In this document: positions 11,514 through 33,801 of the stretch, piece after piece
Layout of the letters: the number at the start of each line of letters is the position of its first letter
How positions within the stretch are numbered: position 1 is the first letter of the stretch
Origin: a virus
Lineage: Duplodnaviria; Heunggongvirae; Uroviricota; Caudoviricetes
Length of the DNA: 40,883 bases
Reading direction: 5' to 3' (one strand)
Virus record (IMG/VR): IMGVR_UViG_2923334124_000004
Program-made: the position numbers and the translations under genes
Notes under the pieces: generated by a model
Database searches by the model: none
What the model was told of the DNA's origin: nothing
The model's input: the letters and a program-made list of their open reading frames with translations, nothing else

Positions 11514-11527
11514 GCGCTTTAAAATCC
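11514..11527 (+). promoter_or_regulatory. candidate late-promoter element (GCGCTTTAAAATCC) upstream of the lysis cassette
   Basis: One of four intergenic copies of a CCTTTAwwAwC-like motif upstream of late operons. Confidence 0.3.
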
Positions 11528-11576
11528 TTCGCGCCCTGTATTTGTGATGCTGTCTCCACCAGATAAGGAGACACAC

Positions 11577-11927
11577 ATGAAAAACCTGAAAAAATTCATT
11601 CCCCCTGTTAAAAAACCTCGCCTCAGCGGCTGGCTGCTGACCTCAGTGCTGTTGCTGGGCACCATCGCTCTGGTCTCACCACAGCAGCTGCCTGTTGTGA
11701 TCTACAAGCTGGCACTCATCACGCTGGCAGCAGTGCTGGGTTACTGGCTTGACCGTTCGCTCTTCCCCAAAGCCCGTCCCGGTCAGTACCTGAAACATGA
11801 CGACAGGCTGATGGCTGAAGGGCGTTTCCCGGTACAGACCGGCCTTCACCTGGTGTTTTCTGCTGCGTTAATCCGCCGTGCACTGATTGTTGCAGCGGTC
11901 TGCCTGGCTGTTGCGATGGGGCTTTAA
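11577..11927 (+). CDS. holin-like membrane protein (putative)
   Basis: About three hydrophobic segments; directly upstream of the endolysin; start set to ATG 11577 preceded by AAGGAGA. Confidence 0.45.
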   Translation: MKNLKKFIPPVKKPRLSGWLLTSVLLLGTIALVSPQQLPVVIYKLALITLAAVLGYWLDRSLFPKARPGQYLKHDDRLMAEGRFPVQTGLHLVFSAALIRRALIVAAVCLAVAMGL

Positions 11928-11929
11928 TC

Positions 11930-12670
11930 ATGAACTGGCCGCAGATCACCTGGATTGTATGCATGTCCCTGAAACTGGCTTTCGAAGCCTTTCGGGTCTT
12001 CATCAGAACCGAACGCCTGTCAGTCCGCGCCGGGACCTTTCTGGTTCATATGGCATGGGTATTCTTTGTCGCAATGTTGCTCTGGTGTGGCGGCTTTTTC
12101 AGCCAGGCATGCGCAGCACAACCTCCGCAGGCTGCGCTGCAGTATCGCGATGATGTGATCCGTAATGCCCGGCTTGAATGGGGACTGTCTGCGCCGGTGG
12201 CCGATTTCGCCGCGCAACTGCATCAGGAAAGCGGCTGGCGACCTGATGCGATCTCGCCGGCTGGCGCTCAGGGACTGGCGCAGTTCATGCCTGCCACTGC
12301 CGACTGGATAAGCCAGTTGATACCGATGCTGAGCAGTCGTGAGCCGTTTAATCCGGCATGGGCTATCCGGGCGCTGGTCAGCTATGACCGCTGGCTGTGG
12401 CAGCGTGTCAGCGCCGCCAGTGACTGCGAGCGTATGGCCATGACACTGTCGGGCTATAACGGTGGTCTGGGCTGGGTACAACGGGACAGGCGGCTTGCAT
12501 CACAGAAAGGTCTGGACAGCACCCGCTGGTTCGGACATGTCGCCACGGTGAATGCCGGACGCAATGCGGCCAGCTGGCGGGAGAACCGCCATTATCCGCA
12601 GCGCATCCTGCGCGAACTGGCACCGCGATATCTCACATGGGGAGGCAGCAGTTGTGTGGCATCTGGTTAA
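11930..12670 (+). CDS. lytic transglycosylase (SLT-domain endolysin)
   Basis: ESGWRPDAISPAGAQGLAQFMPATADWI matches the SLT catalytic region; lies between a holin-like gene and the spanin genes. Confidence 0.7.
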   Translation: MNWPQITWIVCMSLKLAFEAFRVFIRTERLSVRAGTFLVHMAWVFFVAMLLWCGGFFSQACAAQPPQAALQYRDDVIRNARLEWGLSAPVADFAAQLHQESGWRPDAISPAGAQGLAQFMPATADWISQLIPMLSSREPFNPAWAIRALVSYDRWLWQRVSAASDCERMAMTLSGYNGGLGWVQRDRRLASQKGLDSTRWFGHVATVNAGRNAASWRENRHYPQRILRELAPRYLTWGGSSCVASG

Positions 12671-13304
12671 AAAGCTGCCGTGGCGCGGCATTCTGCTGGC
12701 CATTCTTATCAATGCCTTTCTGGTCGGCCTGTATGCCATGGGATACAGAAGTGGTCATGACTCTGCAAAGCGTGACGGTGATACCGCGCTAAGTCAGTTG
12801 CAGTCAGCATTTGACGCGTACAAAACGGAGCAGGCAACGCTTGAGAATGCTGCGCTGCGGGCCTGGGCCAGACGGTATCAGGAGCAGGTGGCCGCCGGGC
12901 AGCGGGCTGAAGCCGGTTATCTTGAGCAGATTGCTCAACTGGAGAGCCGGAACAAACAACTACAGGGGCAAATTAACGATGTCACACAGCGCTGGATTGA
13001 TGAAAAAGGTAAGAGTCATCCCATTGAGTGCGTGTTTACTCGCGGTTTCGTGCGCCAGTACAACGCCGCACTCGGATATGACAACGCATCCGTCGACACC
13101 GGTCATTCAGACTCAGTTGCCGCCACTGGCACCCGCTCTGGCACAGCGACCGGGCAACCTGAAACCACTGACACCCGGTTACGCGATTCGGGTGTCTCCC
13201 AGCGTGACGTTCTCGCCAACATCATCGACAACGCATGGCAATGTCGTCGCTGGCGGAACCAGATAAACGCGCTGCTGGATGAACGGGAAGGATTACAGAA
13301 ATGA
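12654..13304 (+). CDS. i-spanin (Rz-like)
   Basis: GTG 12654 preceded by GGAGG; N-terminal TM segment then coiled-coil rich periplasmic domain; contains an embedded +1-frame lipoprotein ORF. Confidence 0.55.
   Translation: MWHLVKKLPWRGILLAILINAFLVGLYAMGYRSGHDSAKRDGDTALSQLQSAFDAYKTEQATLENAALRAWARRYQEQVAAGQRAEAGYLEQIAQLESRNKQLQGQINDVTQRWIDEKGKSHPIECVFTRGFVRQYNAALGYDNASVDTGHSDSVAATGTRSGTATGQPETTDTRLRDSGVSQRDVLANIIDNAWQCRRWRNQINALLDEREGLQK
13000..13266 (+). CDS. o-spanin (Rz1-like lipoprotein), embedded within the i-spanin gene
   Basis: MKKVRVIPLSACLLAVSC signal/lipobox followed by a proline-rich short protein, entirely inside the Rz-like ORF in another frame. Confidence 0.55.
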   Translation: MKKVRVIPLSACLLAVSCASTTPHSDMTTHPSTPVIQTQLPPLAPALAQRPGNLKPLTPGYAIRVSPSVTFSPTSSTTHGNVVAGGTR

Positions 13305-13627
13305 CACTGCAGGTTGAATTCTGGACGGTGGTGAGTTTTCTGCTCACCTTCATGAGGTTTGTGGGAGGGCTCGCCAAATGGTTGTTCAGTAAAACAGAAG
13401 AACGCCAGGCGGCACGATTCGCCTCCCTTGAACAGGCCCTGCAACAATCCGCCTCCAACTGGGGCGAGCTGGAAAAAGAATTTATGCGATTTAAAGCGGA
13501 TTTACCGCTGAATTATGTCCGTCGAGAGGATTATATCCGTGGCCAGACAGTCATTGAGGCCAAACTGGACGCGCTTTATAACAAACTGGAAGTGGTACAG
13601 CAGTACCGCAATACCGGAGGTCAATAA
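13301..13627 (+). CDS. hypothetical membrane-anchored protein
   Basis: 108 aa; N-terminal hydrophobic segment then helical region. Confidence 0.4.
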   Translation: MTLQVEFWTVVSFLLTFMRFVGGLAKWLFSKTEERQAARFASLEQALQQSASNWGELEKEFMRFKADLPLNYVRREDYIRGQTVIEAKLDALYNKLEVVQQYRNTGGQ

Positions 13628-13938
13628 TGGTCGATATTACCCGGGTACGCCGCGAATCCCTGCGCTGGAGTCTGCTGGTTGCCCTGAACAAGACCCGCCC
13701 TTACACCGCCAGCGAGACGCTGCTGCTGGATGTGTCCCGTGCCATCTACCCGGACACCACACCGCTGGAACTGCGCCGCGAACTGGATTATCTGGCTGAC
13801 CGTAAAATGGTTGAGCTGGAGAAAAAACCTTCTGGCGACTGGTTTGCTGACCTGACCCGCCTCGGCGTAGACCTGGTGGAATACACCGTGGAATGTGGTC
13901 CGGGTATTGCCCGCCCGGAAAAGTACTGGAGTGAATAA
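13627..13938 (+). CDS. hypothetical phage protein
   Basis: 103 aa ORF translationally coupled (TAATG) to neighbours in the late operon. Confidence 0.4.
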   Translation: MVDITRVRRESLRWSLLVALNKTRPYTASETLLLDVSRAIYPDTTPLELRRELDYLADRKMVELEKKPSGDWFADLTRLGVDLVEYTVECGPGIARPEKYWSE

Positions 13939-14483
13939 TGGCCAGACGCAGCACAATAGAAAAGCTGCCGGAAGACGTGCGCCGCTGGCTTGAACGGGCG
14001 CTGACTGAATCCGGCTTCAGCGGGTATAACGAGCTGGAGTCACTGTTGCGTGAGCGGGGGTACGTCATCAGCAAATCCGCTATCCATCGCTATGGACAGA
14101 AGATTGAGCGCCGCTATGGTGCTATCCGTGCGGCAACAGAAGCGGCCCGCATGCTGACCGAAGGCGCAGCAGACGATCAGGATGCGCGTTCGGAGGCTGT
14201 GATAGCCCTTATTCAGACCGAGCTGTTCGAGAGTATTGTCCAGTTGCAGGAGGCGGAAGAAGGCGAAGTCGATCCTAAAGAACGCGTGGCCCTGCTGTCG
14301 AAGGTGGCGAAGAATGTGGCTACGCTGTCCCGCGCGTCCGTCAACCTCAAAAAGTTCCAGTCTGAAGTACGGGCCAGAGCGCAGCAGGCAGCCAGCAACG
14401 CCGAGAAAATTGCCCGTAAGGGGGGACTGTCAAGCGACGCAGTACAGGCGCTTCGTCGCGAGATTCTGGGGATTGCCACATGA
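13938..14483 (+). CDS. terminase small subunit-like protein (Mu gp27-like)
   Basis: 181 aa; position immediately upstream of the large terminase; helical, charged DNA-binding-like N-terminus. Confidence 0.5.
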   Translation: MARRSTIEKLPEDVRRWLERALTESGFSGYNELESLLRERGYVISKSAIHRYGQKIERRYGAIRAATEAARMLTEGAADDQDARSEAVIALIQTELFESIVQLQEAEEGEVDPKERVALLSKVAKNVATLSRASVNLKKFQSEVRARAQQAASNAEKIARKGGLSSDAVQALRREILGIAT

Positions 14484-14777
14484 CAAAATCATCCGGAGTG
14501 ATTTTAAACGCCGCTGGCGGCGGCCCCGAAGGGATGAGTCCCATGGACGGGAGGAATAACCTTGCTCCCGTTTTGCCTGATACCTCGGCGCTGGATGCCC
14601 CTCCCGTTCTGTTGCCTTACCAGCAGCGCTGGGTGGCAGACACCTCTCCGCTTAAGGTGATAGAAAAGAGCCGTCGTACCGGTATTACATGGGCTGAGGC
14701 ATCCGATAACGTACTGACCGCCGCCTCTTCTGCGCCAGCAGGCGGGATGAATGTGTATTACATCGCTTATAACCAGG
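14480..14777 (+). pseudogene. terminase large subunit, 5' fragment (interrupted by an IS66-family element)
   Basis: The reading frame runs into the IS at 14778; joining 14777 to 17318 restores one continuous frame (...YNQ-D-MTVEYIQ...) of about 531 codons. Confidence 0.7.
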
Positions 14778-14862
14778 GTAAGCGTAAACTGACCGCCGTA
14801 TGTAGCCATCAGACGAGAATTGGTAACTTAGACGCCCATCTGATATAGACGGACATCTAAGT

Positions 14863-15288
14863 ATGGAATTACAGGACTGGCGAAAAGAACCTCGTAAAAA
14901 CTATTCGAATGAATTCAAACTTCGTATGGTGGAACTGGCATCACAACCTGGAGCTTGTGTTGCACAGATTGCACGTGAAAATGGCGTCAATGATAATGTT
15001 ATTTTCAAATGGCTCAGGCTCTGGCAGAACGAAGGGCGTGTTTCGCGGCGTCTTCCGGTAACGACCTCTTCTGACACTGGCGTTGAATTATTACCTGTAG
15101 AAATAACGCCGGATGAGCAGAAAGAACCTGTGGCGGCCATTGCGCCGTCTTTATCCACTTCCACTCAGACCAGAGTCAGTGCCAGTTCCTGCAAGGTGGA
15201 ATTCCGTCACGGTAACATGACGCTGGAAAATCCATCGCCAGAGCTGCTCACAGTGTTGATCCGTGAACTGACCGGGAGGGGAAGATGA
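14863..15288 (+). CDS. tnpA: IS66-family accessory protein TnpA (orf1)
   Basis: 141 aa, first ORF of the IS; HTH-like N-terminus typical of IS66 orf1. Confidence 0.7.
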   Translation: MELQDWRKEPRKNYSNEFKLRMVELASQPGACVAQIARENGVNDNVIFKWLRLWQNEGRVSRRLPVTTSSDTGVELLPVEITPDEQKEPVAAIAPSLSTSTQTRVSASSCKVEFRHGNMTLENPSPELLTVLIRELTGRGR

Positions 15289-15635
15289 TCTCACTCCCAT
15301 CAGGTACCCGTATCTGGCTCGTTGCCGGCGTTACCGATATGCGTAAATCCTTCAACGGACTGGGAGAACAGGTACAACATGTGCTGAATGATAATCCCTT
15401 CTCCGGTCACCTGTTTATCTTCCGTGGCCGACGGGGTGACACCGTCAAAATTCTTTGGGCTGATGCTGATGGTCTGTGCCTGTTCACCAAACGCCTGGAG
15501 GAAGGCCAGTTTATCTGGCCTGCGGTACGTGACGGCAAGGTATCCATTACCCGCTCGCAACTGGCAATGCTCCTCGATAAGCTGGACTGGCGTCAGCCAA
15601 AAACATCCAGCCGTAACTCACTGACAATGTTGTAA
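15285..15635 (+). CDS. tnpB: IS66-family protein TnpB (orf2)
   Basis: 116 aa; overlaps orf1 by 4 nt as is usual in IS66; conserved IS66 orf2 character. Confidence 0.7.
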   Translation: MISLPSGTRIWLVAGVTDMRKSFNGLGEQVQHVLNDNPFSGHLFIFRGRRGDTVKILWADADGLCLFTKRLEEGQFIWPAVRDGKVSITRSQLAMLLDKLDWRQPKTSSRNSLTML

Positions 15636-15665
15636 AAAACTCCTGACCGCATTATAAAAACGGTC

Positions 15666-17279
15666 ATGAGTCAGAAATACCTCATTCGCATCGCAGAGCT
15701 GGAAAGGTTGCTCTCTGAGCAGGCTGAAGCCCTCCGTCAGAAAGACCAGCAACTGAGTCTGGTTGAAGAGACGGAAGCCTTCCTGCGCTCTGCACTGACA
15801 CGTGCCGAAGAAAAGATCGAAGAAGATGAACGGGAAATAGAACATCTGCGGGCTCAGATAGAAAAACTGCGCCGGATGCTGTTCGGTACCCGTTCTGAAA
15901 AACTGCGTCGTGAAGTTGAACTGGCTGAGGCTCTGCTGAAACAACGTGAACAGGACAGCGATCGTTACAGTGGGCGGGAAGACGATCCTCAGGTTCCCCG
16001 CCAGTTGCGACAGTCGCGCCATCGTCGTCCGTTACCGGCACACCTTCCCCGTGAAATACACCGCCTGGAGCCAGAAGAAAGCTGTTGCCCGGAGTGTGGC
16101 GGTGAGCTGGATTATCTGGGGGAAGTCAGCGCTGAACAGCTGGAACTGGTGAGCAGTGCCCTGAAAGTGATCCGCACAGAACGGGTAAAAAAAGCCTGTA
16201 CAAAATGTGACTGTATTGTTGAAGCACCGGCGCCGTCCCGCCCGATAGAGCGTGGTATCGCGGGCCCCGGATTACTTGCCCGCGTGTTAACGGGAAAATA
16301 CTGCGAACATCTGCCACTGTATCGTCAGAGTGAAATCTTTGCCCGCCAGGGTGTCGAACTGAGCCGGGCCTTACTCTCCAACTGGGTTGACGCGTGCTGC
16401 CAGTTAATGACACCGGTGAATGATGCCCTGTACCGTTATGTAATGAACACCCGCAAGGTTCACACTGATGACACACCGGTAAAGGTACTGGCACCGGGTC
16501 AGAAAAAGGCGAAAACAGGGCGTATCTGGACGTATGTCCGGGATGATCGCAATGTGGGTTCGTCATCTCCTCCAGCGGTCTGGTTCGCGTACTCGCCGAA
16601 CCGGCAGGGGAAACACCCGGAGCAACACCTCCGCCCCTTCCGGGGTATCCTGCAGGCGGATGCGTTCACAGGTTACGACAGGTTGTTCAGTGCAGAACGT
16701 GAAGGTGGTGCACTGACAGAAGTTGCGTGCTGGGCCCATGCCCGGCGAAAAATCCACGATGTATACATCAGCAGCAAAAGTGCGACGGCAGAAGAAGCCC
16801 TGAAGCGAATCAGTGAACTGTACGCCATCGAGGATGAAATACGGGGATTACCGGAGTCAGAGCGTCTTGCCGTCAGGCAGCAGCGAAGCAAAGTGTTACT
16901 GACGTCGCTGCATGAATGGATGGTGGAGAAGAATGGTACGCTGTCGAAAAAATCCAGACTGGGCGAAGCGTTCAGCTATGTACTGAATCAGTGGGATGCC
17001 CTCTGTTATTACAGTGATGACGGTCTGGCGGAGGCGGATAATAATGCTGCGGAAAGAGCGCTTCGTGCAGTCTGTCTCGGAAAGAAAAACTTTATGTTCT
17101 TTGGCAGCGATCACGGCGGCGAGCGTGGAGCACTGTTGTACGGGCTGATCGGCACCTGCCGTCTGAACGGTATCGATCCGGAAGCGTATCTGCGCCATAT
17201 CCTGAGCGTACTGCCGGAATGGCCTTCCAACCGAGTTGACGAACTCCTGCCATGGAACGTAGTACTCACCAATAAATAA
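15666..17279 (+). CDS. tnpC: IS66-family transposase TnpC
   Basis: 537 aa; N-terminal leucine-zipper-like coiled coil, CxxC...CxxC zinc motif (CPECG...CTKCD), and a DDE-type core, typical of IS66 transposases. Confidence 0.8.
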   Translation: MSQKYLIRIAELERLLSEQAEALRQKDQQLSLVEETEAFLRSALTRAEEKIEEDEREIEHLRAQIEKLRRMLFGTRSEKLRREVELAEALLKQREQDSDRYSGREDDPQVPRQLRQSRHRRPLPAHLPREIHRLEPEESCCPECGGELDYLGEVSAEQLELVSSALKVIRTERVKKACTKCDCIVEAPAPSRPIERGIAGPGLLARVLTGKYCEHLPLYRQSEIFARQGVELSRALLSNWVDACCQLMTPVNDALYRYVMNTRKVHTDDTPVKVLAPGQKKAKTGRIWTYVRDDRNVGSSSPPAVWFAYSPNRQGKHPEQHLRPFRGILQADAFTGYDRLFSAEREGGALTEVACWAHARRKIHDVYISSKSATAEEALKRISELYAIEDEIRGLPESERLAVRQQRSKVLLTSLHEWMVEKNGTLSKKSRLGEAFSYVLNQWDALCYYSDDGLAEADNNAAERALRAVCLGKKNFMFFGSDHGGERGALLYGLIGTCRLNGIDPEAYLRHILSVLPEWPSNRVDELLPWNVVLTNK

Positions 17280-17317
17280 GCGTCAATACGGTGCTCCGTT
17301 GACGCTTACTAACCAGG

Positions 17318-18615
17318 ACATGACCGTCGAATACATTCAGGCGTGTGCGATGTGGGCACGGGCATTCAACTATGCGGCCAGTGAAATTGAAGAAGGATTC
17401 TGGGAAGAGGACGACGACGACAAACACATCAAGACTTACACCATCAAATTTCCTGACTCCGGCTTTCGTATTGTTGCGCTCTCCAGCCGCCCGTCTAACC
17501 TGCGTGGCCGTCAGGGTATTATTGTTATCGACGAAGCGGCGTTCCATGAGCAACTGGACGAACTGCTGAAAGCGGCGCTGGCGATGCTTATCTGGGGGGG
17601 AAAGGTACGCGTTATCTCCACCCATGACGGTGACGACAATCCGTTCAATACGCTTATCGGGGATATCCGTGCCGGACGTCAGGGAGGCAGCATACATCGC
17701 ATCACTTTCCGGGAAGCCGTATCTGAGGGGCTGTTCCGGCGCGTCTGTCTGCGCACCGGGAAGGAATGGTCGGAGGCATCCGAGCAGGCCTGGATGGCAT
17801 CGGTGTACAAATTCTACGGTGCCGGCGCATCCGAAGAGCTTGACTGTATTCCGGCCAACGGTGGCGGTGCCTGGCTGTCCCGTGCCCTGATAGAGTCCCG
17901 CATGTCCGCTGATACGCCGGTATTGCGTCTGACCTGCAAGGAAGGTTATGAACTGCTGTCTGATGAGGTTCGCTTCCGCGAGACGCAGGACTGGCTTGAT
18001 GAGTATCTGAAACCATTGCTGGAGGCACTCCCCACTGATGCCCGCTCTTTCCTGGGGCGCGACTTTGGCCGTAGCGGTGATTTGTCGGTGGACTATCCCC
18101 TGCTGCAGGAGAAGAACCTGGTACGACGCGTGCCATTCGTACTGGAGCTGCGTAACGTGCCGTTCAGACAGCAGGAGCAAATCACCTGGTATCTGATGGA
18201 TGGCCTGCCCGGTCTGCTGGGTGCAGCGTTTGATGCCCGTGGTAATGGTGCCTATCTGGCTGAATACGCCATGCAGCGCTACGGCTCCGGCCGGGTTCAG
18301 CAGGTGATGCCAACCGAAGGCTGGTACCGGGAGCATATGCCTCCGGTCAAAGCTGCACTGGAAGACGGCAACCTGGTGGACTTACCAAAGGATGAAGACA
18401 CACTGGATGACCTGCGGGCCGTTCAGGTGGTGAACGGTGTCCCCCGCGTACCGGAGCAACGCTCAAAAGCAAAGGCTGACGGTGGTAAACGCCACGGGGA
18501 TTCAGCCATCGCACTGGCGCTGGCGTATTTCGCCAGCCGTGAAATTAACAAAGGGCCGGTGAAGGCAAGCTCACGCCGTCGTCGTCAGGCGGCCCGTATG
18601 CTGGAGGGATTCTGA
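17318..18615 (+). pseudogene. terminase large subunit, 3' fragment
   Basis: In frame with the 5' fragment once the IS and one TSD copy are removed; the C-terminal region is consistent with a terminase nuclease domain. Confidence 0.7.
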
Positions 18616-20913: not shown

Positions 20914-20915
20914 CA

Positions 20916-21374: not shown

Positions 21375-21429
21375 GTTTTCTCTCTTCAGGCGGGTGATTT
21401 ATCATTGCCAGCGAATGAGGGGCTGTATT

Positions 21430-21441
21430 ACCTTTATAAAG
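21430..21441 (+). promoter_or_regulatory. 12-bp palindrome CCTTTATAAAGG in a 214-bp noncoding gap, candidate late-promoter/activator site
   Basis: Perfect dyad within the only large intergenic gap in the head module (21375-21588); shares the CCTTTAwwA core with three other late-operon upstream regions. Confidence 0.3.
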
Positions 21442-21588
21442 GCTTTACAGCCTCTGTTTTATAACCGCCTCCGGTTCACCGCATTGCTTTCCCTGTCCTT
21501 CTCCCCTGATGTTTTCTAAAGCAGATTAAAATCGCCGGGCCTGCATTTCTCACAAACTGTCTCCGACAACATAACGCGGGACAGCAAA

Positions 21589-22704
21589 ATGTCAGCCATT
21601 CACATTTTTAAAGCCGGTACTCATACCGATATGCACGGCAAAAAACTGCCGTTCACGCCAGACGATCTTGCCGCCTGCGTGAAAGCCTATGACCCGTCCG
21701 TCCATGAAGCACCACTCGTGATTGGTCATCCCAGAACGGAAGACCCGGCGTGGGGCTGGGTGAAAGCCCTGTCGCTCAGCGGCGTCGATCTGATGGCAGA
21801 GCCTGCCCAGCTGGACCCGCAGTTTGCTGAGATGGTCACCGACGGACGATTCAAAAAAGTGTCCGCCTCTTTCTACCTCCCGGATTCACCGTCCAATCCG
21901 AAGCCCGGCGTGCTCTACCTTCGCCATGTGGGCTTTCTCGGGGCACAGCCACCTTCCGTCAAGGGGCTGAAACAGGTGTCCTTCAGTGAGCAGGAAGAAG
22001 GTGTGGTGGAGTTCGCCGACTGGCAGGCCATCACGAATGCCTCCCTGTGGGGAAAGCTGCGCGATTTTCTGATCGCCCGCTTCAGTCTGGACGAGGCAGA
22101 AAAAGTCCTGCCGGAATGGCAGCTCAACAGTCTGCGCGAAGAGGCGTACCGCGACACACTGTCGCAGGATGCAGCAGGTGCACAATTCAGTGAGACAGGC
22201 CCGGGGCCGTCTTCCGCAAGTAACGAGGAATCATCGATGACAAAAGAAGAGATTGAAGCCCTTCAGGAGGAGAACCGCCGCCTGAAGCAGCAGGCTGCTG
22301 ATCGCGATGCGCGTGATGCACAGGTCAGACAGGAGCAACTGCATAAGGACAATGTGGCCTTTGCAGAAAAACTGGTCGCAGAGGGCCGTCTGGCTCCCCG
22401 CGCCTCCTCCGTGGTGGTTGCCCTGCTGGATGCCGTCGCCGGTGGCGACAAGCCGGTGGAGTTTGCTGAGGGGGAAAGCCGCACACCGCTGGCCACCGCC
22501 TTTCGTTCATTGCTCTCCGACGGGGAGCCGGTGATGAATTTCGCCGAACAGGCCACAAAAGAGCGTGTCGGCGACACGGTGAAGGTGGATGTGGCAGAGT
22601 TTGCGGAAGCCGATCCTGAGCGTCTGGCCCTGCATCAGAAAGCAGTGGCCCTGTCCAAAAAAGAAGGCATCAGCTATGAGGCTGCTGTCGCACGCTGCCT
22701 GTAA
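21589..22704 (+). CDS. head maturation protease/scaffold (Mu I-like)
   Basis: 371 aa; N-terminal protease-like domain then a charged helical scaffold-like C-terminus; directly upstream of the major capsid gene. Confidence 0.65.
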   Translation: MSAIHIFKAGTHTDMHGKKLPFTPDDLAACVKAYDPSVHEAPLVIGHPRTEDPAWGWVKALSLSGVDLMAEPAQLDPQFAEMVTDGRFKKVSASFYLPDSPSNPKPGVLYLRHVGFLGAQPPSVKGLKQVSFSEQEEGVVEFADWQAITNASLWGKLRDFLIARFSLDEAEKVLPEWQLNSLREEAYRDTLSQDAAGAQFSETGPGPSSASNEESSMTKEEIEALQEENRRLKQQAADRDARDAQVRQEQLHKDNVAFAEKLVAEGRLAPRASSVVVALLDAVAGGDKPVEFAEGESRTPLATAFRSLLSDGEPVMNFAEQATKERVGDTVKVDVAEFAEADPERLALHQKAVALSKKEGISYEAAVARCL

Positions 22705-22718
22705 TTTAAGGAGAGAGC

Positions 22719-23672: not shown

Positions 23673-23681
23673 GGAGGCGTT

Positions 23682-24020: not shown

Positions 24021-24021
24021 C

Positions 24022-24932: not shown

Positions 24933-25183
24933 TGAAAGAATACCGCTATTCCGGCCCGGCCAGCGGCGTCACGCTGTCGGACGGAACCGAAATCCTGCTC
25001 TGGCCGGGGAAGACGGTTTCCCTGCCGGAGGAGCATGACTACGTGAAGGTACTGGTGGCGCTGAAACATCTGACGCCGGTACCTGAAGAGACTAAACCCG
25101 CCGGCACACCGGCTGTGCAGTCACCAAAGCGCAGAAGCAGCAGTGACAGCGAAGTGAAAACGGAGGACACCCATGGCAGCTAA
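24929..25183 (+). CDS. hypothetical phage protein (Mu gp38-like position)
   Basis: 84 aa ORF immediately upstream of the sheath gene. Confidence 0.4.
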   Translation: MMKEYRYSGPASGVTLSDGTEILLWPGKTVSLPEEHDYVKVLVALKHLTPVPEETKPAGTPAVQSPKRRSSSDSEVKTEDTHGS

Positions 25184-26600: not shown

Positions 26601-27121
26601 TGTCAAAGATTGAGATAAACCGCATCACGAATGCCAACATCTATCTGGATGGTACTAACCTGCTGGGACGGGCTGAGGAAGTTAAACTCCCCGATGTCTC
26701 CATGATTATGCAGGAACACAAGGCGCTGGGGATGGTGGGTAAGGTGGAACTCCCGGCTGGTTTTGACAAACTGGAAGGCGAAATCAAATGGAACAGCTTT
26801 TACCGCGATGCGATGCTGTCTGCCGCGAACCCGTACAGGTCGCTGGCACTGCAGTGTCGTTCCAGCGTCCAGCGCTACAGCTCGCAGGGGCTGATTGACG
26901 AAATCCCGCTGGTCACCTTCCTGACGATTATGTTCAAGAAGAACCCGCTGGGGACGTTCAAACAGCACGAGAACGCCGAGTTCTCCAGTAGCTTCACCTG
27001 CACGTATATCAGACAGGTACTGGATGGTGAAGAGCTGCTGCAACTGGACTATCTGGCCAACATCTTCCGGGTCGGCGGTGTTGATCAACTGACTGACTAC
27101 CGTATCAATATCGGGGGCTGA
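26600..27121 (+). CDS. tail tube protein
   Basis: 173 aa; position directly after the sheath gene. Confidence 0.65.
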   Translation: MSKIEINRITNANIYLDGTNLLGRAEEVKLPDVSMIMQEHKALGMVGKVELPAGFDKLEGEIKWNSFYRDAMLSAANPYRSLALQCRSSVQRYSSQGLIDEIPLVTFLTIMFKKNPLGTFKQHENAEFSSSFTCTYIRQVLDGEELLQLDYLANIFRVGGVDQLTDYRINIGG

Positions 27122-27123
27122 CG

Positions 27124-27405
27124 GTGAGTGTTGAACTGACGGATAAAGGAGGACGATGTGCGGCACTGGGCATGTCAAATGGTACGTGGTTTACCCTCCT
27201 TGATATTCCGGGGGTGGAAACCCTTTTTAATACCCGTAAAACCAATGACCCGATTGACTGCACACGTTCAAAGGCCCGCAAACTGGCGGATTTGATTGAA
27301 GCATGGGAGCCTCCCGACCACTGGTTCTCCGGCATCGGCAAATCTGAGGGAAAGACGCTTCTCATCGCTTTCCTGCGTAACTGCAAGGGGTTTCGCACTT
27401 GCTGA
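27124..27405 (+). CDS. hypothetical protein (between tube and chaperone genes)
   Basis: 93 aa ORF starting at GTG 27124; an alternative internal ATG exists at 27172. Confidence 0.35.
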   Translation: MSVELTDKGGRCAALGMSNGTWFTLLDIPGVETLFNTRKTNDPIDCTRSKARKLADLIEAWEPPDHWFSGIGKSEGKTLLIAFLRNCKGFRTC

Positions 27406-27411
27406 CATCAC

Positions 27412-27435
27412 AGGGGCTCCGGCCCCTTCTTCTTA
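27412..27435 (+). terminator. candidate hairpin/terminator (AGGGGC-TCCG-GCCCCT followed by TCTTCTT)
   Basis: GC-rich inverted repeat and a T-rich tail in the gap before the chaperone gene. Confidence 0.35.
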
Positions 27436-27439
27436 ATCT

Positions 27440-27450
27440 CCTTTAATATC
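27440..27450 (+). promoter_or_regulatory. candidate late-promoter element CCTTTAATATC
   Basis: Exact 11-mer shared with 33791-33801; located in the intergenic region upstream of the chaperone/tape-measure genes. Confidence 0.3.
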
Positions 27451-27502
27451 CGTCACGCGCTTCTCCCGACATACTGCCCTGAACTTACACAGGAGCACAA
27501 TC

Positions 27503-27838
27503 ATGTCACAGACCCCATCCGATACTTTTAAATTGTCTTATCCCTTCACCACTGCTGCAGGCACCAGAATTGAGCTGGTTGAACTGAAACGCCTGACGGT
27601 AAAAGACCTGAAGCAGGTGCGCAAAATCAGCAAAAACCCGGCAGACTGGGACGAACCGCTGATTGCCCGCAGTACTGGTCTTCTCCCGGAGGATCTCGAC
27701 AATATGGATCTGGCTGATTACCTGCAGTTACAGAAACGATTTCAGCTCATCACGGGGATGGGTGAGAGCAACCAGGGCGCTGACGCAGGCGCAGGGGCTG
27801 CTGGCGAGATGGTTCCGGTTTCAGCCGGGGGAGATTGA
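27503..27838 (+). CDS. tail assembly chaperone (P2 gpE-like)
   Basis: 111 aa; position immediately upstream of the tape measure; overlapped by a second ORF in another frame, as in G/GT and E/E' pairs. Confidence 0.5.
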   Translation: MSQTPSDTFKLSYPFTTAAGTRIELVELKRLTVKDLKQVRKISKNPADWDEPLIARSTGLLPEDLDNMDLADYLQLQKRFQLITGMGESNQGADAGAGAAGEMVPVSAGGD

Positions 27839-27920
27839 TGCCCTCGATACTGACGATCTGGAGATGTGGCTGGAGCAGGCTGAAGAGCAAATCAAAAGCG
27901 AGTACGGCGACAAATCATAG
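27663..27920 (+). CDS. frameshift extension of the tail assembly chaperone (E'-like)
   Basis: An ORF in the +1 frame relative to 27503-27838 stays open through the chaperone stop and ends 75 bp before the tape measure; the real product would be a fusion and the shift site is undetermined. Confidence 0.4.
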   Translation: MPAVLVFSRRISTIWIWLITCSYRNDFSSSRGWVRATRALTQAQGLLARWFRFQPGEIDALDTDDLEMWLEQAEEQIKSEYGDKS

Positions 27921-27995
27921 TACAGACAGCCGCCAGTAGCGGCTGTTCTGCGTTATCCCCTCACGTCTTTTCACCTTCCCCGGAGGTTAACCACT

Positions 27996-30947
27996 ATGTC
28001 GGGACAGTTTTCAGTCGGCGTTGTTATCGGCGGGATGATTGGCAGCACATTCCGTTCTGCAATGAGCGGTACCCGCCGTGCGCTTGATTCCCTGAGCGAT
28101 ACCTCACGCCGCCTGCAGGAACGTCAGAACGCTTTAACCCGTGCAACAGAACGTTATGGTCAACTGGGTTCTTCCCGGATGCAGCATCTCAACAGCGAGC
28201 TGCTGCGGGTAAGCCGCACCATGGAGCAAATTGAGCGCCAGCAGCGCCGTCTGTCAGCGGCATCCGCTACCAGTGATGCGCTGAAAGCTAACCGCATGGC
28301 GCTGTATGGTCAGGGGATTGAAGCGTATGGCATGGCACAGACTGTTTATCATACGGTTTCCCCTGCCGTTCAGCAGTCCATGTCTTTTCAGGACAAAATG
28401 ATTGATATGTCGATCACCGCAAAATATGACAATAAAACGCGGGATGCACTTGCCGGACAGATAAAAGGCTGGGCGCTTAAATACAATCAGTATCAGGATG
28501 AGCTGCAGGAGGCGATGGGTTCACTCATCAGCGACAATATTGATAATGTGTCAGATATCGGTTTTCTGATGCCGGATATTGCCCGCGCGGCAACGGCAAC
28601 ACGCACGTCTGCTCAGGACTGGGCAAAAGTGGCCGCAGTCTGGCAAAACTCCCTGAAAGGCGCGGCCAGAGATTTTGGTGCCGTTCAGAATATTATGGCT
28701 TATGCCGGTGACCAGGGGTCATTTGAAATCCCGGATCAGGTCAAGTGGATGCAGTCCCTGGCCCCAATGATGGCGGGTATTGCCAGTGGAAAAGAGGCTG
28801 TTGCTGAAATCGGGGCCAGTCTCCAGATAGCAAAAATCGGTGCAGGTTCCACCGACGAAGCAGCCAATAATTTTAAAAACTTTCTTACCAAAATTTTTGC
28901 CCGCGATACTCAGAAACAGTTTGCTGATCTGGGTATTGATTTGCAGGGATCTATTGCGAGTTATAAAGCTGCGGGGATCTCTCCGATTGAAGGGATGTTG
29001 AGTGTTATAGAACGTTACCTCAATGCCAAAAGCCCCGAAGCGCTGGCCGGCTTCAAATCAGCCATGAAAATAAAGAATGATACGGCAAGAGATGAGGCAC
29101 TTCAGGCTCTGGCGAAAAACTTTGGTCTGGGCGATATGTTCGCGGATATGCAGGTCATGGCATTTATCCGCCCGATGCTGGCCAACATGGACAGATATCG
29201 AGAGATCCGTGCCGGTGCTCTCAGGGCTGCGGATAACGATTTGCTTGCCAGTGCTTATGATCAGCGGCTGAAATCTCCCCTTGAAGCCACTAAAACACTT
29301 ATGGTCAGCAGTCGCGATCTGGCAATTACGCTGGGCGATCAATTAGCTCCATCTTTTATTTCTCTGACTCAGGACTTGCTCCCACTCATTCAGGGGACAA
29401 AACACTGGGTGGCGACTCACCCGCAATTTGTCAGTGGGGCTTTTAAGCTCATCAGTGCGCTCCTTGCGATTAAGATAGCGACTGTTGGTCTCAAACTGGG
29501 GCTGAATCTCCTTATTTCCCCCTTTGTGAACGTCTGGAAAACTGCTGTTTTACTCCGGACCAACTGGCATCGACTGACTACCGCACTCGGAGAAGGTGGC
29601 AAATTACGCTGGCTTGTCACTGGATTCAGCCGACTGACCAGCGGAGGACTGAAACTCAGCAAAGTTCTGGCGGGCAGCCTCGTTCGCGGTTTTATGAGCG
29701 CTGCACGTGCCGTTCTCTGGATTGGGCGAGCGCTGATGATGAATCCCATCGGTCTCGTTATCACCGCTGTCGCGGCAGCAGCTTACCTTATCTACCGCAA
29801 CTGGGGGGCAGTCAGTGGCTGGTTTAAACAGCGCTGGGCTGACATTCAGGAAGCCTTTAACGGCGGTATCGCGGGAACTGGTAAGCTGCTGATTAACTGG
29901 TCGCCGGCAGGCCTGCTCTATAAAGCCTTTGCGGCTGCGCTGAAATATTTCGGCGTTACTCTGCCGGCAAAGTTCACCGACTTCGGTGGCCATCTTATCG
30001 ACGGTTTGATTAACGGTATCAAAAACAAATGGGGGTCGCTCAAATCCAGTGTAACCGGAATGGGTGACAGCATCAGTAGCTGGTTTAAACAATGCTGGGC
30101 TGACATTCAGGAAGCCTTTAACGGCGGTATCGCGGGAACTGGTAAGCTGCTGATTAACTGGTCGCCGGCAGGTCTGCTCTATAAAGCCTTTGCAGCTGCG
30201 CTGAAATATCTTGGTGTTGATCTGCCGGCAAAGTTTACCGACTTCGGTGGCCATCTTGTCGATGGTCTGATTAACGGTATCAAAAACAAATGGGAGTCGC
30301 TCAAATCCAGTGTAACCGGAATGGGCGACAGCATCAGTGGCTGGTTCAGCGAAAAGCTGGGCATTCATTCGCCGAGCCGCGTGTTTATGGGCTTTGGTGA
30401 CAATATCGCGCAGGGGGCCGCCATTGGCCTGCAGCGGACCACTCCGCTTGCAGCTCTGGCCGGGCAGCGAATGGCCAGTGAACTGCTCCCCAGAATGCCC
30501 GTGAGCATTCAGGGGCCAGAAATACGGGATAACACTTCAGGTGTTCGCTTCAGTATGCCGTTGCCCGATATCAATGGGTTTATGTCGTCTGCTAAAAATG
30601 CGATCGGAGCCGTAATCAATAGTTTGTCTTCCATGCCCGCTATTCCGCTCTCCACCCGGGCATCGATTTTACCAGGGCAACGTCTGGCAAATGAGATGAC
30701 ACCGGATGTTCCCCGTATCCCCTCGCCTGAAATCCTGGCTGCCGGATATTCAGGCCGTGGTGCAGCTGCAACCGGCGGTGGAACGTCTGGTGGTATCCAG
30801 GTCAGCTTTAATCCTCAGTTTTTCCTCAATGGCAGGGAAACCACAGCGCCTGCAGGACTGACTGGTGCCCTGAATATGAGTCTGCATGAGCTGGAAAAAA
30901 TGCTGGAGCGTCTGCTGGCTCAGAAACAACGTAAGGAGTACCGCTGA
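27996..30947 (+). CDS. tail tape measure protein
   Basis: 983 aa; long helical protein with hydrophobic segments; follows the chaperone pair; contains an internal 261-bp tandem duplication. Confidence 0.85.
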   Translation: MSGQFSVGVVIGGMIGSTFRSAMSGTRRALDSLSDTSRRLQERQNALTRATERYGQLGSSRMQHLNSELLRVSRTMEQIERQQRRLSAASATSDALKANRMALYGQGIEAYGMAQTVYHTVSPAVQQSMSFQDKMIDMSITAKYDNKTRDALAGQIKGWALKYNQYQDELQEAMGSLISDNIDNVSDIGFLMPDIARAATATRTSAQDWAKVAAVWQNSLKGAARDFGAVQNIMAYAGDQGSFEIPDQVKWMQSLAPMMAGIASGKEAVAEIGASLQIAKIGAGSTDEAANNFKNFLTKIFARDTQKQFADLGIDLQGSIASYKAAGISPIEGMLSVIERYLNAKSPEALAGFKSAMKIKNDTARDEALQALAKNFGLGDMFADMQVMAFIRPMLANMDRYREIRAGALRAADNDLLASAYDQRLKSPLEATKTLMVSSRDLAITLGDQLAPSFISLTQDLLPLIQGTKHWVATHPQFVSGAFKLISALLAIKIATVGLKLGLNLLISPFVNVWKTAVLLRTNWHRLTTALGEGGKLRWLVTGFSRLTSGGLKLSKVLAGSLVRGFMSAARAVLWIGRALMMNPIGLVITAVAAAAYLIYRNWGAVSGWFKQRWADIQEAFNGGIAGTGKLLINWSPAGLLYKAFAAALKYFGVTLPAKFTDFGGHLIDGLINGIKNKWGSLKSSVTGMGDSISSWFKQCWADIQEAFNGGIAGTGKLLINWSPAGLLYKAFAAALKYLGVDLPAKFTDFGGHLVDGLINGIKNKWESLKSSVTGMGDSISGWFSEKLGIHSPSRVFMGFGDNIAQGAAIGLQRTTPLAALAGQRMASELLPRMPVSIQGPEIRDNTSGVRFSMPLPDINGFMSSAKNAIGAVINSLSSMPAIPLSTRASILPGQRLANEMTPDVPRIPSPEILAAGYSGRGAAATGGGTSGGIQVSFNPQFFLNGRETTAPAGLTGALNMSLHELEKMLERLLAQKQRKEYR
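29820..30341 (+). repeat. in-frame tandem duplication, 2 x 261 bp (87 aa each), inside the tape measure gene
   Basis: The units 29820-30080 and 30081-30341 align with about 16 mismatches by manual count (roughly 94% identity); protein repeats WFKQ(R/C)WADIQEAFNGGIAGTGKLLINWSPAGLLYKAF... Confidence 0.85.
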
Positions 30948-31831
30948 TGTTTGCCGTACTGGGTGATATTGAGTTTGAGCTGATTACCTACTGGGACGGC
31001 TTCGAGGCCACGTTCGGCGTCGATTATGCGGAGCATGCCCGCATCGGGGGTAAGCCTGGTCTGCAGTTCGTCGGCGACAGGCTGGACGAAATCCAGATAA
31101 CTCTGGTTTTCCATCAGCATTATTGTGTACCCGATGTGGAGCTGGCGAGACTGCGAACAGCCATGAAAGCCCATCAGGCACTGGCGCTGGTCTTCGGCAA
31201 CGGTGACTATCGCGGCTGGTTCGTGATCACCGATGTGACTGCAACCAGCGAGCAGACTGACAGTACCGGCAACGTGCTGGCTGTCAGTGCCACCGTGTCT
31301 CTCCGGGAATACACCGGTGACCCGAAAAATCCTCTGCAACCACCGGCAATACGCACGAAGCTCCCGGGTGTCGGGGCGGTCTCCGGTGCCATACCTTCAC
31401 CTTCAGGGGTGGCGCAGTTCATCCGCAACGGCGTCAACTATGCGAAACAGGCGCAGTCTGTACTCCAGACCACTATCAGCGCCGTTCGGGTGACACAGAA
31501 AATGAAGGATAACCCCGTTGTCGCACTGACCCGTGTGCCGGGGCTGATGAGCGGACTGGGTAATATCTCCGGGGCTCTGGGGAAAAGTGTTCCGGCGTTT
31601 AACGCACTCTCTGAATCCATGCCCGATGCCATCAGTCTGGCCAGAACAGCCAGCGAAGCAGCCACGTATGTACAGCAGGCACAGTCTGCGCTGAGTGGTG
31701 TGGACAAAAGAAATATTGCAGGTGCTCTGGATACCGTTTCCGGGCAGCTTAACGCCGTCGGCACAGCATTCAACCGCATGTCTCCGGGATTAAGTGCAAT
31801 GGCCGCCAGAATACTGACGAGGAGTGTGTGA
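30947..31831 (+). CDS. tail protein (P2 gpU-like)
   Basis: LVFGNGDYRGWFVITD resembles the conserved core of P2 gpU-type tail proteins; carries a C-terminal extension. Confidence 0.55.
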   Translation: MFAVLGDIEFELITYWDGFEATFGVDYAEHARIGGKPGLQFVGDRLDEIQITLVFHQHYCVPDVELARLRTAMKAHQALALVFGNGDYRGWFVITDVTATSEQTDSTGNVLAVSATVSLREYTGDPKNPLQPPAIRTKLPGVGAVSGAIPSPSGVAQFIRNGVNYAKQAQSVLQTTISAVRVTQKMKDNPVVALTRVPGLMSGLGNISGALGKSVPAFNALSESMPDAISLARTASEAATYVQQAQSALSGVDKRNIAGALDTVSGQLNAVGTAFNRMSPGLSAMAARILTRSV

Positions 31832-32043
31832 TGTTTCTTGAACATGTTACCCGTGACGGAGAGCGCTGGGATTCGCTGGCATGGCAGTACTACGGTGACC
31901 CGCTGGGCTATCCCCGGATTATTGCCGCCAATCCGCACGTGGCCATCACGCCGGTGCTGCCCTCCGGGCTGTTGTTACTGATCCCGGTGATTGAGGCTGA
32001 AGAAGCCCGTACAGAAGAGGATATTGCCCCATGGCTGAGATAA
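31831..32043 (+). CDS. tail protein X (P2 gpX-like)
   Basis: About 70 aa; WQYYGDP...IIAANPHV resembles gpX; start ATG 31831 overlaps the upstream stop. Confidence 0.55.
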   Translation: MFLEHVTRDGERWDSLAWQYYGDPLGYPRIIAANPHVAITPVLPSGLLLLIPVIEAEEARTEEDIAPWLR

Positions 32044-33185
32044 ACAGCACTGCGCAAGTCACATCAGCGTTAACCGGCGTCAGCGATGTGCTGACACCGG
32101 TGTTCACTCTGTGGTATCTGCAGAAAAACATCACCTCTGATATCGCGCCTTATGTCACCCGTGTGACCTGGAGCGATAACATCAAAAATGAGTCCGATAC
32201 CATTGAGGTGGAGCTGGACGACACCGATGGCCGCTGGCTGGATAAATGGTATCCGGGCAAGGGTGACACGCTGACGCTGAAAATGGGCTATCAGGGCGAG
32301 AAGCTGCTGTCCTGCGGTACGTTCTCTATAGACGAGATCGAAGTGAGTTCGCCCGCTTCCGTTGTTTCTATCCGTGGGGTGGCCACCTCGGTTAACAGTG
32401 CCCTGCGGACTAAAACCAGTCGTGGTTTTGAGAACACCACGCTGGCAGCTGTTGCGGGGCGGATTGCCAGAAAGCACCGGCTGAAACTGGTGGGCAGCAT
32501 TGAGTCCATCAGAATCGACCGGGTGACCCAGTATGCTGAAACCGACGTGGGTTTTCTGCGCCGGCTGGCCAGCGAGTATGGTTATGCAGTGAAAGTGGTC
32601 AGTGACCAGCTGATTTTTTCTCATCTGGCCACACTGCGCAGTCAGGAGCCGGTCAGGCAGTTAAAACCGCAGGATGTGGCCCGCTTTTCCCTGCGTGACA
32701 CCATCAACCGGGTCTATAAATCTGCAAAGGTAAAACACCAGAAAAGCAGCAGTAAAAAACTGATCGTCTACGAAGCTGATGGTGGTACCCGTGAAAGCGA
32801 CAAAAAGCTCAAAGGTGGTAAGGTTACCAGCGCTGACTCACTTAAAGTTAACAGCCGCGTCAGCGACCCGGACAGTGCCCGGATTAAAGCGGATTCAGCA
32901 CTGGCCAGACATAACGAATACCAGCAGAACGGCTCCCTGACGCTGACGGGAACACCTCAACTGACAGCAGGCAACAAAATTGAACTGGTGAGTTTTGGGC
33001 AGTTATCCGGGCCATGGCTCATAACCACTGCCCGCCATGCGTTTGACCGTAACAGCGGCTACACCACAGAGCTGGAAGTGGCACGGGGGCCAGTCACAAG
33101 AGGGAAAAAACAAAAAACTCAGAAACTCACGGTTTATCACCCGGATGGCAGTACATCGACGGTGATTAAGGAGAAGAAAAAATGA
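32031..33185 (+). CDS. baseplate hub / late control D-like tail protein
   Basis: 384 aa; position between the X-like and V-like genes matches the gpD (Mu P-like) slot. Confidence 0.65.
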   Translation: MAEINSTAQVTSALTGVSDVLTPVFTLWYLQKNITSDIAPYVTRVTWSDNIKNESDTIEVELDDTDGRWLDKWYPGKGDTLTLKMGYQGEKLLSCGTFSIDEIEVSSPASVVSIRGVATSVNSALRTKTSRGFENTTLAAVAGRIARKHRLKLVGSIESIRIDRVTQYAETDVGFLRRLASEYGYAVKVVSDQLIFSHLATLRSQEPVRQLKPQDVARFSLRDTINRVYKSAKVKHQKSSSKKLIVYEADGGTRESDKKLKGGKVTSADSLKVNSRVSDPDSARIKADSALARHNEYQQNGSLTLTGTPQLTAGNKIELVSFGQLSGPWLITTARHAFDRNSGYTTELEVARGPVTRGKKQKTQKLTVYHPDGSTSTVIKEKKK

Positions 33186-33778
33186 CTGGTGTCACTCGTC
33201 AGGTCGGTACGGTCAGTGCCGTTGATGCCGACAGGGTTCAGGCCCGCGTTCGTCTGCCTGAATGCGATAACCTGCGCACAAACTGGCTTAACGTGCTGCA
33301 GCGCAATACCCAGGATAACAAAGATTACTGGCTCCCTGACGTGGGGGAGCAGGTTGAGGTGCTGCTCGATGCCAACGGCGAGGATGGTGTTATTCTGGGC
33401 GCGGTGTATTCAGACGTCGATAAACCACCGTTCAGTGACAAAAATATCCGGGGAACCCGGTTTGCTGATGGTGCAGAGTACAGCTACAACCGGAAGACGC
33501 ACACTCTGATCATCCGGGGCGGCATTGAGCATATTGTCATTGAGTGTGGTGCTGATGTGGTATTGAAAACACAGAAAGCCACGATTGACGCACCGGAAAC
33601 CGAACTTACCGGAGATCTGCGTGTCAGGGGTAAGCTGATTTACGAAGGAGGCATGGCGGGTTCTGGTGGTGAAGGTGTTACCGCGACCATCCATGGCAAT
33701 ATCGAGATTAAAGGGAATGTCCATGCCACGGGCAGTATGTTGTCTGATGGCGAAAACTCCAGCCACCACTCCCACTGA
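33182..33778 (+). CDS. baseplate assembly protein V (spike)
   Basis: 198 aa; gpV-like N-terminal OB-fold region; position before gpW. Confidence 0.7.
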   Translation: MTGVTRQVGTVSAVDADRVQARVRLPECDNLRTNWLNVLQRNTQDNKDYWLPDVGEQVEVLLDANGEDGVILGAVYSDVDKPPFSDKNIRGTRFADGAEYSYNRKTHTLIIRGGIEHIVIECGADVVLKTQKATIDAPETELTGDLRVRGKLIYEGGMAGSGGEGVTATIHGNIEIKGNVHATGSMLSDGENSSHHSH

Positions 33779-33790
33779 GCTTTTTAAACG

Positions 33791-33801
33791 CCTTTAATAT
33801 C
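33791..33801 (+). promoter_or_regulatory. candidate late-promoter element CCTTTAATATC
   Basis: Exact 11-mer shared with 27440-27450, in the gap upstream of the W-like gene; followed by the hairpin GGGGGC-AATACT-GCCCCC (33815-33832) abutting the ATG. Confidence 0.3.

Follow-up and report, generated by a model that had tools for sequence, protein, structure and literature searches.

Four predicted Mor-dependent late promoters in a BcepMu-type prophage of Escherichia coli

The DNA analyzed here, a 40,883-nucleotide viral stretch (IMG/VR record IMGVR_UViG_2923334124_000004; the whole of it is called the window), is a BcepMu-type transposable prophage of E. coli. At four places its late genes are preceded by a short element in which an imperfect 16-bp dyad is coupled at a fixed distance to a -10-like hexamer, and these elements are very likely late promoters with a conserved upstream activator site. 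The overall explanation proposed is a set of four sigma-70 late promoters that probably depend on Mor, the Mor/C-family activator encoded by the prophage. We infer the identity of the binder, the start sites, and the dependence on an activator. An earlier model reading of the same letters (the original prediction) had proposed Mor/C-family activator sites near -35 at the head of four late units, a proposal now supported by the geometry and synteny of the elements, their -10 offset, the lack of a -35 hexamer, and an association with the recognition helix of Mor. The unit it had chosen, an 11-mer, has given way to a longer one, and one of its four sites has been replaced.

The four promoter elements

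The elements share one architecture: i) an imperfect 16-bp dyad, ideally TTTAAAGC followed by GCTTTAAA (TTAA-N6-TTAA); ii) the triplet ATC; iii) a 19-nt spacer; and iv) a -10 hexamer of the form NAnnnT. The conserved core reads tTAA-N6-TTAAAA and then (G/T)C, and the spacer is conserved in length but free in sequence. By hand count, the dyads at 11508-11523, 21515-21530, 27432-27447, and 33783-33798 match the ideal at 10-14 of 16 positions. The dyad centre is 30 nt from the hexamer in the window, which corresponds to about -42.5 relative to the inferred start, so that the dyad overlaps the -35 position. All four elements are on the + strand, 31-62 nt ahead of the holin, protease, chaperone, and gpW start codons. 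Their parts, together with a hairpin that adjoins one of them, are as follows.

11507-11526, + strand: P_holin activator site TCTTAACGCGCTTTAAAATC, dyad 11508-11523 with its centre between 11515 and 11516; heads the holin/lysis-head operon
11546-11551, + strand: predicted P_holin -10 hexamer GATGCT, 19 nt past the site, with TGT before the hexamer (extended -10-like)
~11558: predicted P_holin start, giving a 20-nt leader before the ATG at 11578
21514-21533, + strand: P_protease activator site TTCTAAAGCAGATTAAAATC; heads the protease/scaffold-capsid operon
21553-21558, + strand: predicted P_protease -10 hexamer CAAACT; predicted start ~21565, 24-nt leader, ATG at 21589
27412-27427, + strand: terminator-like hairpin AGGGGC-TCCG-GCCCCT, then TCTTCTT, directly upstream of P_chaperone; inverted repeat confirmed
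27431-27450, + strand: P_chaperone activator site TCTTAATCTCCTTTAATATC, with a weak left half-site; heads the tail chaperone/tape-measure operon
27470-27475, + strand: predicted P_chaperone -10 hexamer CATACT; predicted start ~27482, 21-nt leader, ATG at 27503
33782-33801, + strand: P_gpW activator site TTTTAAACGCCTTTAATATC; heads the baseplate operon (gpW onward)
33821-33826, + strand: predicted P_gpW -10 hexamer AATACT, in the loop of the inverted repeat CACGGGGGCA/TGCCCCCATG
~33833: predicted P_gpW start, the A of the gpW ATG; leader 0 nt

All four hexamers (GATGCT, CAAACT, CATACT, and AATACT) have A at position 2 and T at position 6, and the base that follows is G in each case, giving GATGCTG (holin), CATACTG (chaperone), AATACTG (gpW), and CAAACTG (protease). 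The P_protease block, TTCTAAAGCAGATTAAAATC plus 19 nt plus CAAACTG, spans 21514-21559. The right half, spacing, and -10 block of P_chaperone are identical to those of P_gpW. The -35 windows (AATCCT, AATCGC, TATCCG, and TATCAG) share only 1-2 of 6 bases with TTGACA by hand count, and consensus scans for a conventional sigma-70 promoter (-35 and -10 separated by a 16-18 nt spacer, at least 9 of 12 matches) found none at the four elements. The terminator-like hairpin at 27412-27427 probably ends the preceding head/tail transcript; its place directly before P_chaperone is consistent with separate transcription units.

The strings from which the original prediction was built are all in the sequence: GCGCTTTAAAATCC at 11514-11527, CCTTTAATATC at both 27440-27450 and 33791-33801, and the palindrome CCTTTATAAAGG in the gap before the protease/scaffold gene, whose length of 214 bp (21375-21588) was given correctly. 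As a unit, the 11-mer CCTTTAWWAWC does not hold up. Its exact form occurs only as two identical copies (0.04 expected). With one mismatch there are 8 matches against 2.24 expected, three of them in coding sequence and two of them the palindrome counted on both strands, so that this formulation is not specific. The element extends instead over the 16-bp dyad plus ATC and is coupled to the hexamer 19 nt downstream. The holin, chaperone, and gpW copies do belong to one family, as had been claimed; the palindrome does not, and the true second site lies 83 bp downstream of it, at 21514-21533.

The pattern TTAAWATC-N20-ANNCTG has exactly four matches in the window (11519, 21526, 27443, and 33794), each of them in a late intergenic gap on the + strand; 100 shuffles gave no match. 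It was derived after the sites had been seen, and it is the independent tests that carry weight. The core TTAAWATC occurs five times in the window, and four of the copies are the + strand sites, which fall within 496 nt of gaps (binomial P ~7e-9). An independent matrix was trained on four Pasteurella-phage sites only, and ~82,000 window positions were ranked with it, the expectation being taken from Markov shuffles. It placed 11507 at rank 1, 21514 at rank 3, and 33782 at rank 4, with 0.04 matches expected at that score.

Two further matches were considered. A strong matrix match at 38904-38933 was rejected as a promoter; it is coding sequence of a Gin-like invertase (…KRALK…) and is shared with Mu gin and phage KP12. 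Invertase genes carry a recombinational enhancer in the corresponding region. On the minus strand, a leftward candidate precedes the dam methylase gene (9169-9933): CCCTAAACCACATTAACAGA-N19-CATCAT, running from 10122 to 10103, with the spacing of the family. This CCCTAAACCACATTAACAGA site could be a Pmom-like fifth late promoter, but that is doubtful, its score being within noise and its spacing differing by 7 nt in KP12.

Conservation in related phages

Close relatives of the prophage show how the elements vary. Some E. coli chromosomes are 100% identical over a 22-kb query (8000-30000) and carry the prophage between ycaL and aroA. The isolated, viable phage PhiKM (PQ738613) is 99.9% identical to the window, and Klebsiella phage KP12 and Escherichia phage Phi06_2974 B are ~85% identical. 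In the latter two the P_holin site is kept and its spacer is variable. Similarly, the CATACT of P_chaperone is invariant in enterobacterial relatives and the spacer varies. A search of viral contigs with gpW as bait returned close relatives only (86-100% identity), which inform spacer variation rather than diversity; among 23 unique close variants of the gpW site, the dyad and the -10 are invariant and the spacer again varies.

The arrangement is also found in distant relatives. Pasteurella phage AFS-2018a, from a host of a different family, has a Mor that is 46% identical and a Mu-type gene order. A CTTTAAAGCGCTTTAAAATC-like 20-mer precedes each of its lysin, protease, tail-chaperone, and gpW genes, all four in syntenic positions, and 19 nt past these sites stand good -10 hexamers (TATACT, TATTCT, TAAACT, and TAATAT). 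In Pasteurella relatives the site TTTAAAGCGCTTTAAA is a perfect 16-bp palindrome. In Ralstonia phage YO107_2 (Mor 57% identical) the four copies all lie on one strand and keep the syntenic order. In BcepMu (Mor 54% identical) the copies upstream of the holin, protease, and gpW genes are clear and the one at the chaperone position is degenerate; there, as in the window, the site is preceded by a hairpin and a T-run. All three of these phages also have the gpW site where the window has it.

For a wider sample, 80 loci were fetched with a protease/scaffold protein alignment as bait from Enterobacterales, Burkholderiales, Neisseriales, Pasteurellales, Desulfovibrionales, and others, and were scanned with a matrix. 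As many as 104 of the 111 plus-strand matches fall into three positional classes: a protease class (44 matches in 43 of the 80 loci, 64-111 nt upstream of the protease start), a holin class (~7.4 kb upstream of the protease start, in many genera), and a chaperone class (32 matches, ~5.3-7.4 kb downstream). The minus-strand matches are mostly the same sites read as palindromes, with an offset of 17 nt. In 50 representatives sharing less than 80% identity, information is high at tTAA (positions 3-6) and TTAAAA (positions 13-18), falls to near zero in the spacer, and returns to high values at the A of hexamer position 2 and the T of position 6. At offset 19 the A2/T6 pair is found in 42 of these 50, compared with only 0-6 of them at every other offset from 14 to 25. 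The hexamer columns were not part of the scanning matrix and were not used for site selection. A conserved dyad, a free spacer, and an A2/T6 pair locked at offset 19 make up the footprint expected of an activator site fixed to a -10 hexamer.

The motif is not universal among Mu-like phages. The matrix scan found no copy at the expected positions in JBD25, phiSHP3, Vibrio ZX4290, or Mu, the scan being for this motif and not for motifs of their own. No published description of the motif was found for BcepMu-like, Neisseria, or Pasteurellaceae Mu-like phages, nor one of the late promoters of BcepMu; the 2004 BcepMu genome paper was outside the coverage of this search, so that a prior mention is possible.

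Mor as the proposed activator

The minus-strand early genes of the prophage run from ~8367 down to 1 and encode a helix-turn-helix (HTH) regulator, a DDE transposase, an ExeA-like B protein, Gam, GemA, and Mor. From 11578 onward the late genes are read rightward. This layout is that of BcepMu, not of Mu. Two early genes matter here.

1-390, - strand: mor, encoding a Mor/C-family transcription activator (129 aa); last gene of the leftward early operon
362-811: gemA, adjoining mor

The mor product matches Pfam Mor (PF08765, E=1.3e-43) over residues 9-116 of 129, a full-length match, and its RefSeq name is "Mor transcription activator family protein". With 30% identity to Mu Mor and 37% to Mu C, it stands at much the same distance from both. 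A tblastn search found no second Mor/C paralogue in the window, and the prophage ends 143 bp past mor, beside the host gene ycaL. The absence of a C-like gene is therefore real, and the original prediction had the gene content right: a mor-like gene present, no C-like gene. As the only Mor/C paralogue in the prophage and the product of the last early-operon gene, Mor is the proposed activator of the four promoters, and the sequence evidence makes this assignment likely. In Neisseria and Kingella relatives (loci L039, L043-L045, L065, L081, and L082) the Mor gene is not at the end of the early operon but directly before the protease gene, between G-like and I-like genes, ~230-560 nt upstream of the protease start; there the protease promoter site follows the Mor stop codon.

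The recognition helix of the mor product, VSLQWVY, is common to the other motif-positive phages, which share the form VS(L/M)QW(V/I)Y; the helix is different in the motif-negative JBD25, phiSHP3, and Vibrio phage and in Mu Mor and Mu C. Among the fetched loci with a Mor gene in range, the form x-x-x-Q-(W/H/Q/R)-(I/V)-Y is present in every motif-positive locus and missing from the motif-negative ones, L049 being a possible exception.

The geometry of the four elements is that described for Mu. The target of Mu C is an imperfect 16-bp dyad that overlaps -35 and has its centre at -43.5; it occurs at four late promoters which possess a -10 and lack a -35 (PMC2582627), and the site consensus of Mu C is TTAT-N5-6-ATAA (PMC12867686). 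At Mu Pmom (TTATgccccaATAA) 31 nt separate the dyad centre from the TAAGAT hexamer, as against 30 nt in the window. Like the Mu late promoters, those of the window are four in number, two of them syntenic (before the lysis genes and before the protease gene I), have tetranucleotide half-sites 6 bp apart, and go with a Mor/C-family activator. They differ from the Mu promoters in several respects: i) the half-sites are TTAA-N6-TTAA(AA) rather than TTAT-N5-6-ATAA, and the matrix has no match at Mu Plys, PI, PP, or Pmom; ii) the other two promoters stand before the tail chaperone and gpW genes rather than before P and mom; iii) there is no separate C gene, and the early operon runs in the opposite direction to the late genes; and iv) the recognition helix is VSLQWVY instead of the LSQPQIY of Mu C. 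Since both half-sites and recognition helix differ, the promoters of the window are not in the Mu C regulon. The earlier likening to Mu late sites thus stands for the family geometry and fails for the Mu C sequence, the specificity within the family being a different one. As judged from its sequence, the architecture is that of Mu-type Mor/C-dependent late promoters, every defining feature that sequence can test being present.

The proposed activator has features in common with both Mu proteins. As with Mu Mor at Pm, it is encoded by the last early-operon gene, beside gemA; Mu Mor acts at a dyad at about -43.5 with sigma-70 plus activator. Mu Mor, however, drives one middle promoter, whose product is C, whereas Mor of the window is proposed to act on four late promoters. 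Its C-terminus, QGKLF (QRDLF in BcepMu gp01), occupies the position of the clamp-binding motif QPDLF of Mu C, where Mu Mor has QPSLL. By this alignment the single activator resembles the late activator, Mu C, in its C-terminal Q..LF feature, which is not shared by Mu Mor, and coupling to the sliding clamp through QGKLF is possible. BcepMu has the same genome layout and likewise a single left-end Mor/C gene (gp01, "Mu protein C / Mor gp17 transcription regulator"); it differs in its host, in protein sequence (~50% identity), and in having a promoter-proximal AAAAGA where the window has AAAATC.

A two-tier cascade can be proposed on this basis. Upon induction, the leftward early operon would be transcribed through its last gene, mor (1-390). 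Mor would bind the four dyads as a dimer or higher oligomer and, in the manner of Mu Mor and Mu C, would recruit sigma-70 RNA polymerase and stand in for the absent -35 contact. The lysis/head, protease/capsid, tail chaperone/tape-measure, and baseplate operons would then be switched on to give four late transcripts. The cascade would have an early and a late tier, in place of the three tiers of Mu (early, Mor, C).

Several observations weigh against this reading. With the Pasteurella-only matrix, P_chaperone (27431) ranks only 12th, and its score of 9.7 is below the mean shuffle maximum of 12.5; the low rank is due to its weak left half-site. The hexamers GATGCT and CAAACT are poor as -10 sequences, and inverted repeats at the hexamers might place the true starts elsewhere. 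The matrix scanned over the 80 loci included the window's own sites. The association between helix and motif is confounded by shared ancestry, quite apart from the possible exception L049. Furthermore, no late-strand starts were found at the predicted promoters in the one transcript-start map found for a relative, from differential RNA sequencing (dRNA-seq) of an uninduced biofilm of B. cenocepacia J2315, which carries BcepMu (J2315 coordinates were mapped as 609955 minus the phage coordinate); because the cells were uninduced, absent starts are uninformative and are what would be expected of silent activator-dependent promoters. Finally, Mor is accompanied in these phages by GemA and further early proteins, so that the binder could conceivably be another phage-encoded protein.

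That last point leads to the best of the alternatives, in which the promoters are real and the dyad is bound by another protein: GemA, a small HTH protein, or host Fis or IHF. GemA is encoded beside mor in all these phages, and the A/T-rich dyad site would also suit such a reading. It is nevertheless unlikely. JBD25 and phiSHP3 encode GemA and are without the motif, the motif tracks the recognition helix of Mor, and its occurrence in phages from several host orders argues against a host-specific factor; moreover, the Mor/C family is the established activator class for this geometry (PMC2582627).

The palindrome, the hairpins, and the meaning of the late code

The palindrome that the original prediction had counted as the second site is real and was misplaced by a single base (21430-21441 instead of 21431-21442).

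21418-21455: imperfect 19-nt inverted repeat (confirmed), with the perfect palindrome CCTTTATAAAGG (21431-21442) as its apex

The alternative in which the unit is the 11-mer CCTTTAWWAWC, and this palindrome the activator site of the protease operon, has some appeal: the palindrome is one base from the 11-mer, contains TAAAGGCTTTA, which is like the dyad centre minus one base, and is strongly conserved in relatives, including BcepMu. Its score with the Pasteurella-only matrix is, however, 9.5, which is within the shuffle range and below the mean shuffle maximum, and it lacks the -10 signature at the 19-nt offset. A bona fide family member stands 64-105 bp downstream of it across relatives, at a conserved distance from the protease start, and the palindrome is absent from Neisseria, Haemophilus, and Pasteurella relatives that retain the promoter motif. 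The 11-mer reading is thus quite improbable, and membership of the palindrome in the promoter family is correspondingly hard to credit. Least of all can the shared sequences be taken as non-regulatory, i.e., as module-junction or recombination remnants or as chance A/T-rich similarity: the gaps are indeed A/T-richer than coding sequence and phage genomes are mosaics with conserved boundary sequences, but this reading has next to nothing left in its favor given the fixed 19-nt distance to an independent -10 signature, a spacer that is free while dyad and hexamer are kept, the orientation of all copies on one strand facing the downstream operon, and shuffle expectations far below the observed counts.

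By its pattern of conservation, the palindrome is instead a separate conserved cis element outside the family of Mor-type promoters. The segment 21418-21455 folds as a 10+4 bp hairpin and is followed by UGUUUUAU. The sequence CCTTTATAAAGG(C)TTTACAG is kept in Enterobacterales and Burkholderia, including the G-I gap of BcepMu, and the outer stem is often lost in relatives; a kept centre and a lost stem point to sequence-specific recognition and not only to structure. The distances from palindrome to promoter (64, 74, 84, 90, 98, and 105 bp) make helical phasing suggestive but not consistent. The gap that holds the palindrome is also where Mu has its strong gyrase site. In this phage the element could act as a terminator, as a protein-binding site, or as both, or it could be an analogue of the gyrase site. 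In the Pasteurella phage (L006, 16720-16770) several additional half-site-like repeats, ATTTAAAGCGAATTAAAGCGATTTAAACTGCATTTAAAGC, stand 50-100 bp before the protease promoter site, in a position analogous to that of the palindrome in the window, and may serve the activator as auxiliary sites.

Small inverted repeats lie around or directly after the predicted hexamers of three promoters (11551-11573, 21556-21585, and 33812-33835). The arms of the gpW repeat, which extends into the ATG, covary between lineages (GGGGC/GCCCC, GCGGC/GCCGC, and CCCTG/CAGGG). In the holin repeat, TGTCTCC pairs with the Shine-Dalgarno region GGAGACA. Neisseria and Desulfovibrio relatives have T-runs after the equivalent hairpins. 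The hairpins may terminate read-through from the upstream operon, with the promoter's own transcripts escaping because, as proposed, they start within the 5' arm.

The gpW ATG is 6-7 nt past the hexamer in the E. coli, BcepMu, Ralstonia, and Pasteurella phages, and no Shine-Dalgarno sequence for gpW is evident in the window (33821-33835). From this short distance a leaderless gpW mRNA is predicted. The annotated start of BcepMu gp32 (18850; L005, 18810-18870) falls within the predicted promoter. A more likely start is the in-frame ATGAAC that lies 12 nt further on and is conserved in the Ralstonia phage; its message would likewise be nearly leaderless. The predicted leaderless gpW mRNA and the covarying -10 hairpins with their possible terminator role are not described for Mu.

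The window copy of the prophage also carries an insertion sequence, ISEc23 (IS66 family, ~14777-17311), which splits the large terminase gene, so that this copy is probably packaging-defective. In strain S931B (L001, ~15530-18015) ISEc23 is found 32 bp upstream of the holin promoter site, with promoter and terminase gene intact; the two positions reflect either independent insertions or a relocation. No Rfam family was found anywhere in the window.

Taken jointly, and so far only as a tentative proposal, the dyad TTTAAAGC/GCTTTAAA at a fixed distance from the -10 could be the common late code of a large clade of transposable phages infecting Enterobacterales, Burkholderiales, Neisseriales, Pasteurellales, and Desulfovibrionales, with one Mor-type reader in a two-tier cascade, a leaderless gpW message, hairpins as read-through terminators, and CCTTTATAAAGG as a second cis site. 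Nothing that a Mu specialist expects is overturned, and the element is of an ordinary kind. The prophage type is very common, at least 80% of the 22-kb query region being present in 475 of 5,426 complete E. coli genomes. The promoter model, with its site, spacing, -10, and starts, can be tested and extends to relatives in Burkholderia, Neisseria, Haemophilus, and Pasteurella pathogens. For the Mor/C family it would mean a second DNA specificity, TTAA-N6-TTAA read by a Q-W/H/Q helix as against TTAT-N5-6-ATAA, which would be useful for structural and clamp-coupling work on Mor/C proteins. Prophage annotation would gain marked operon boundaries and a simple indicator of late-gene regulation. As for the biology of these phages, the comparison suggests that they would skip the middle stage of Mu and use one Mor/C protein for late transcription.

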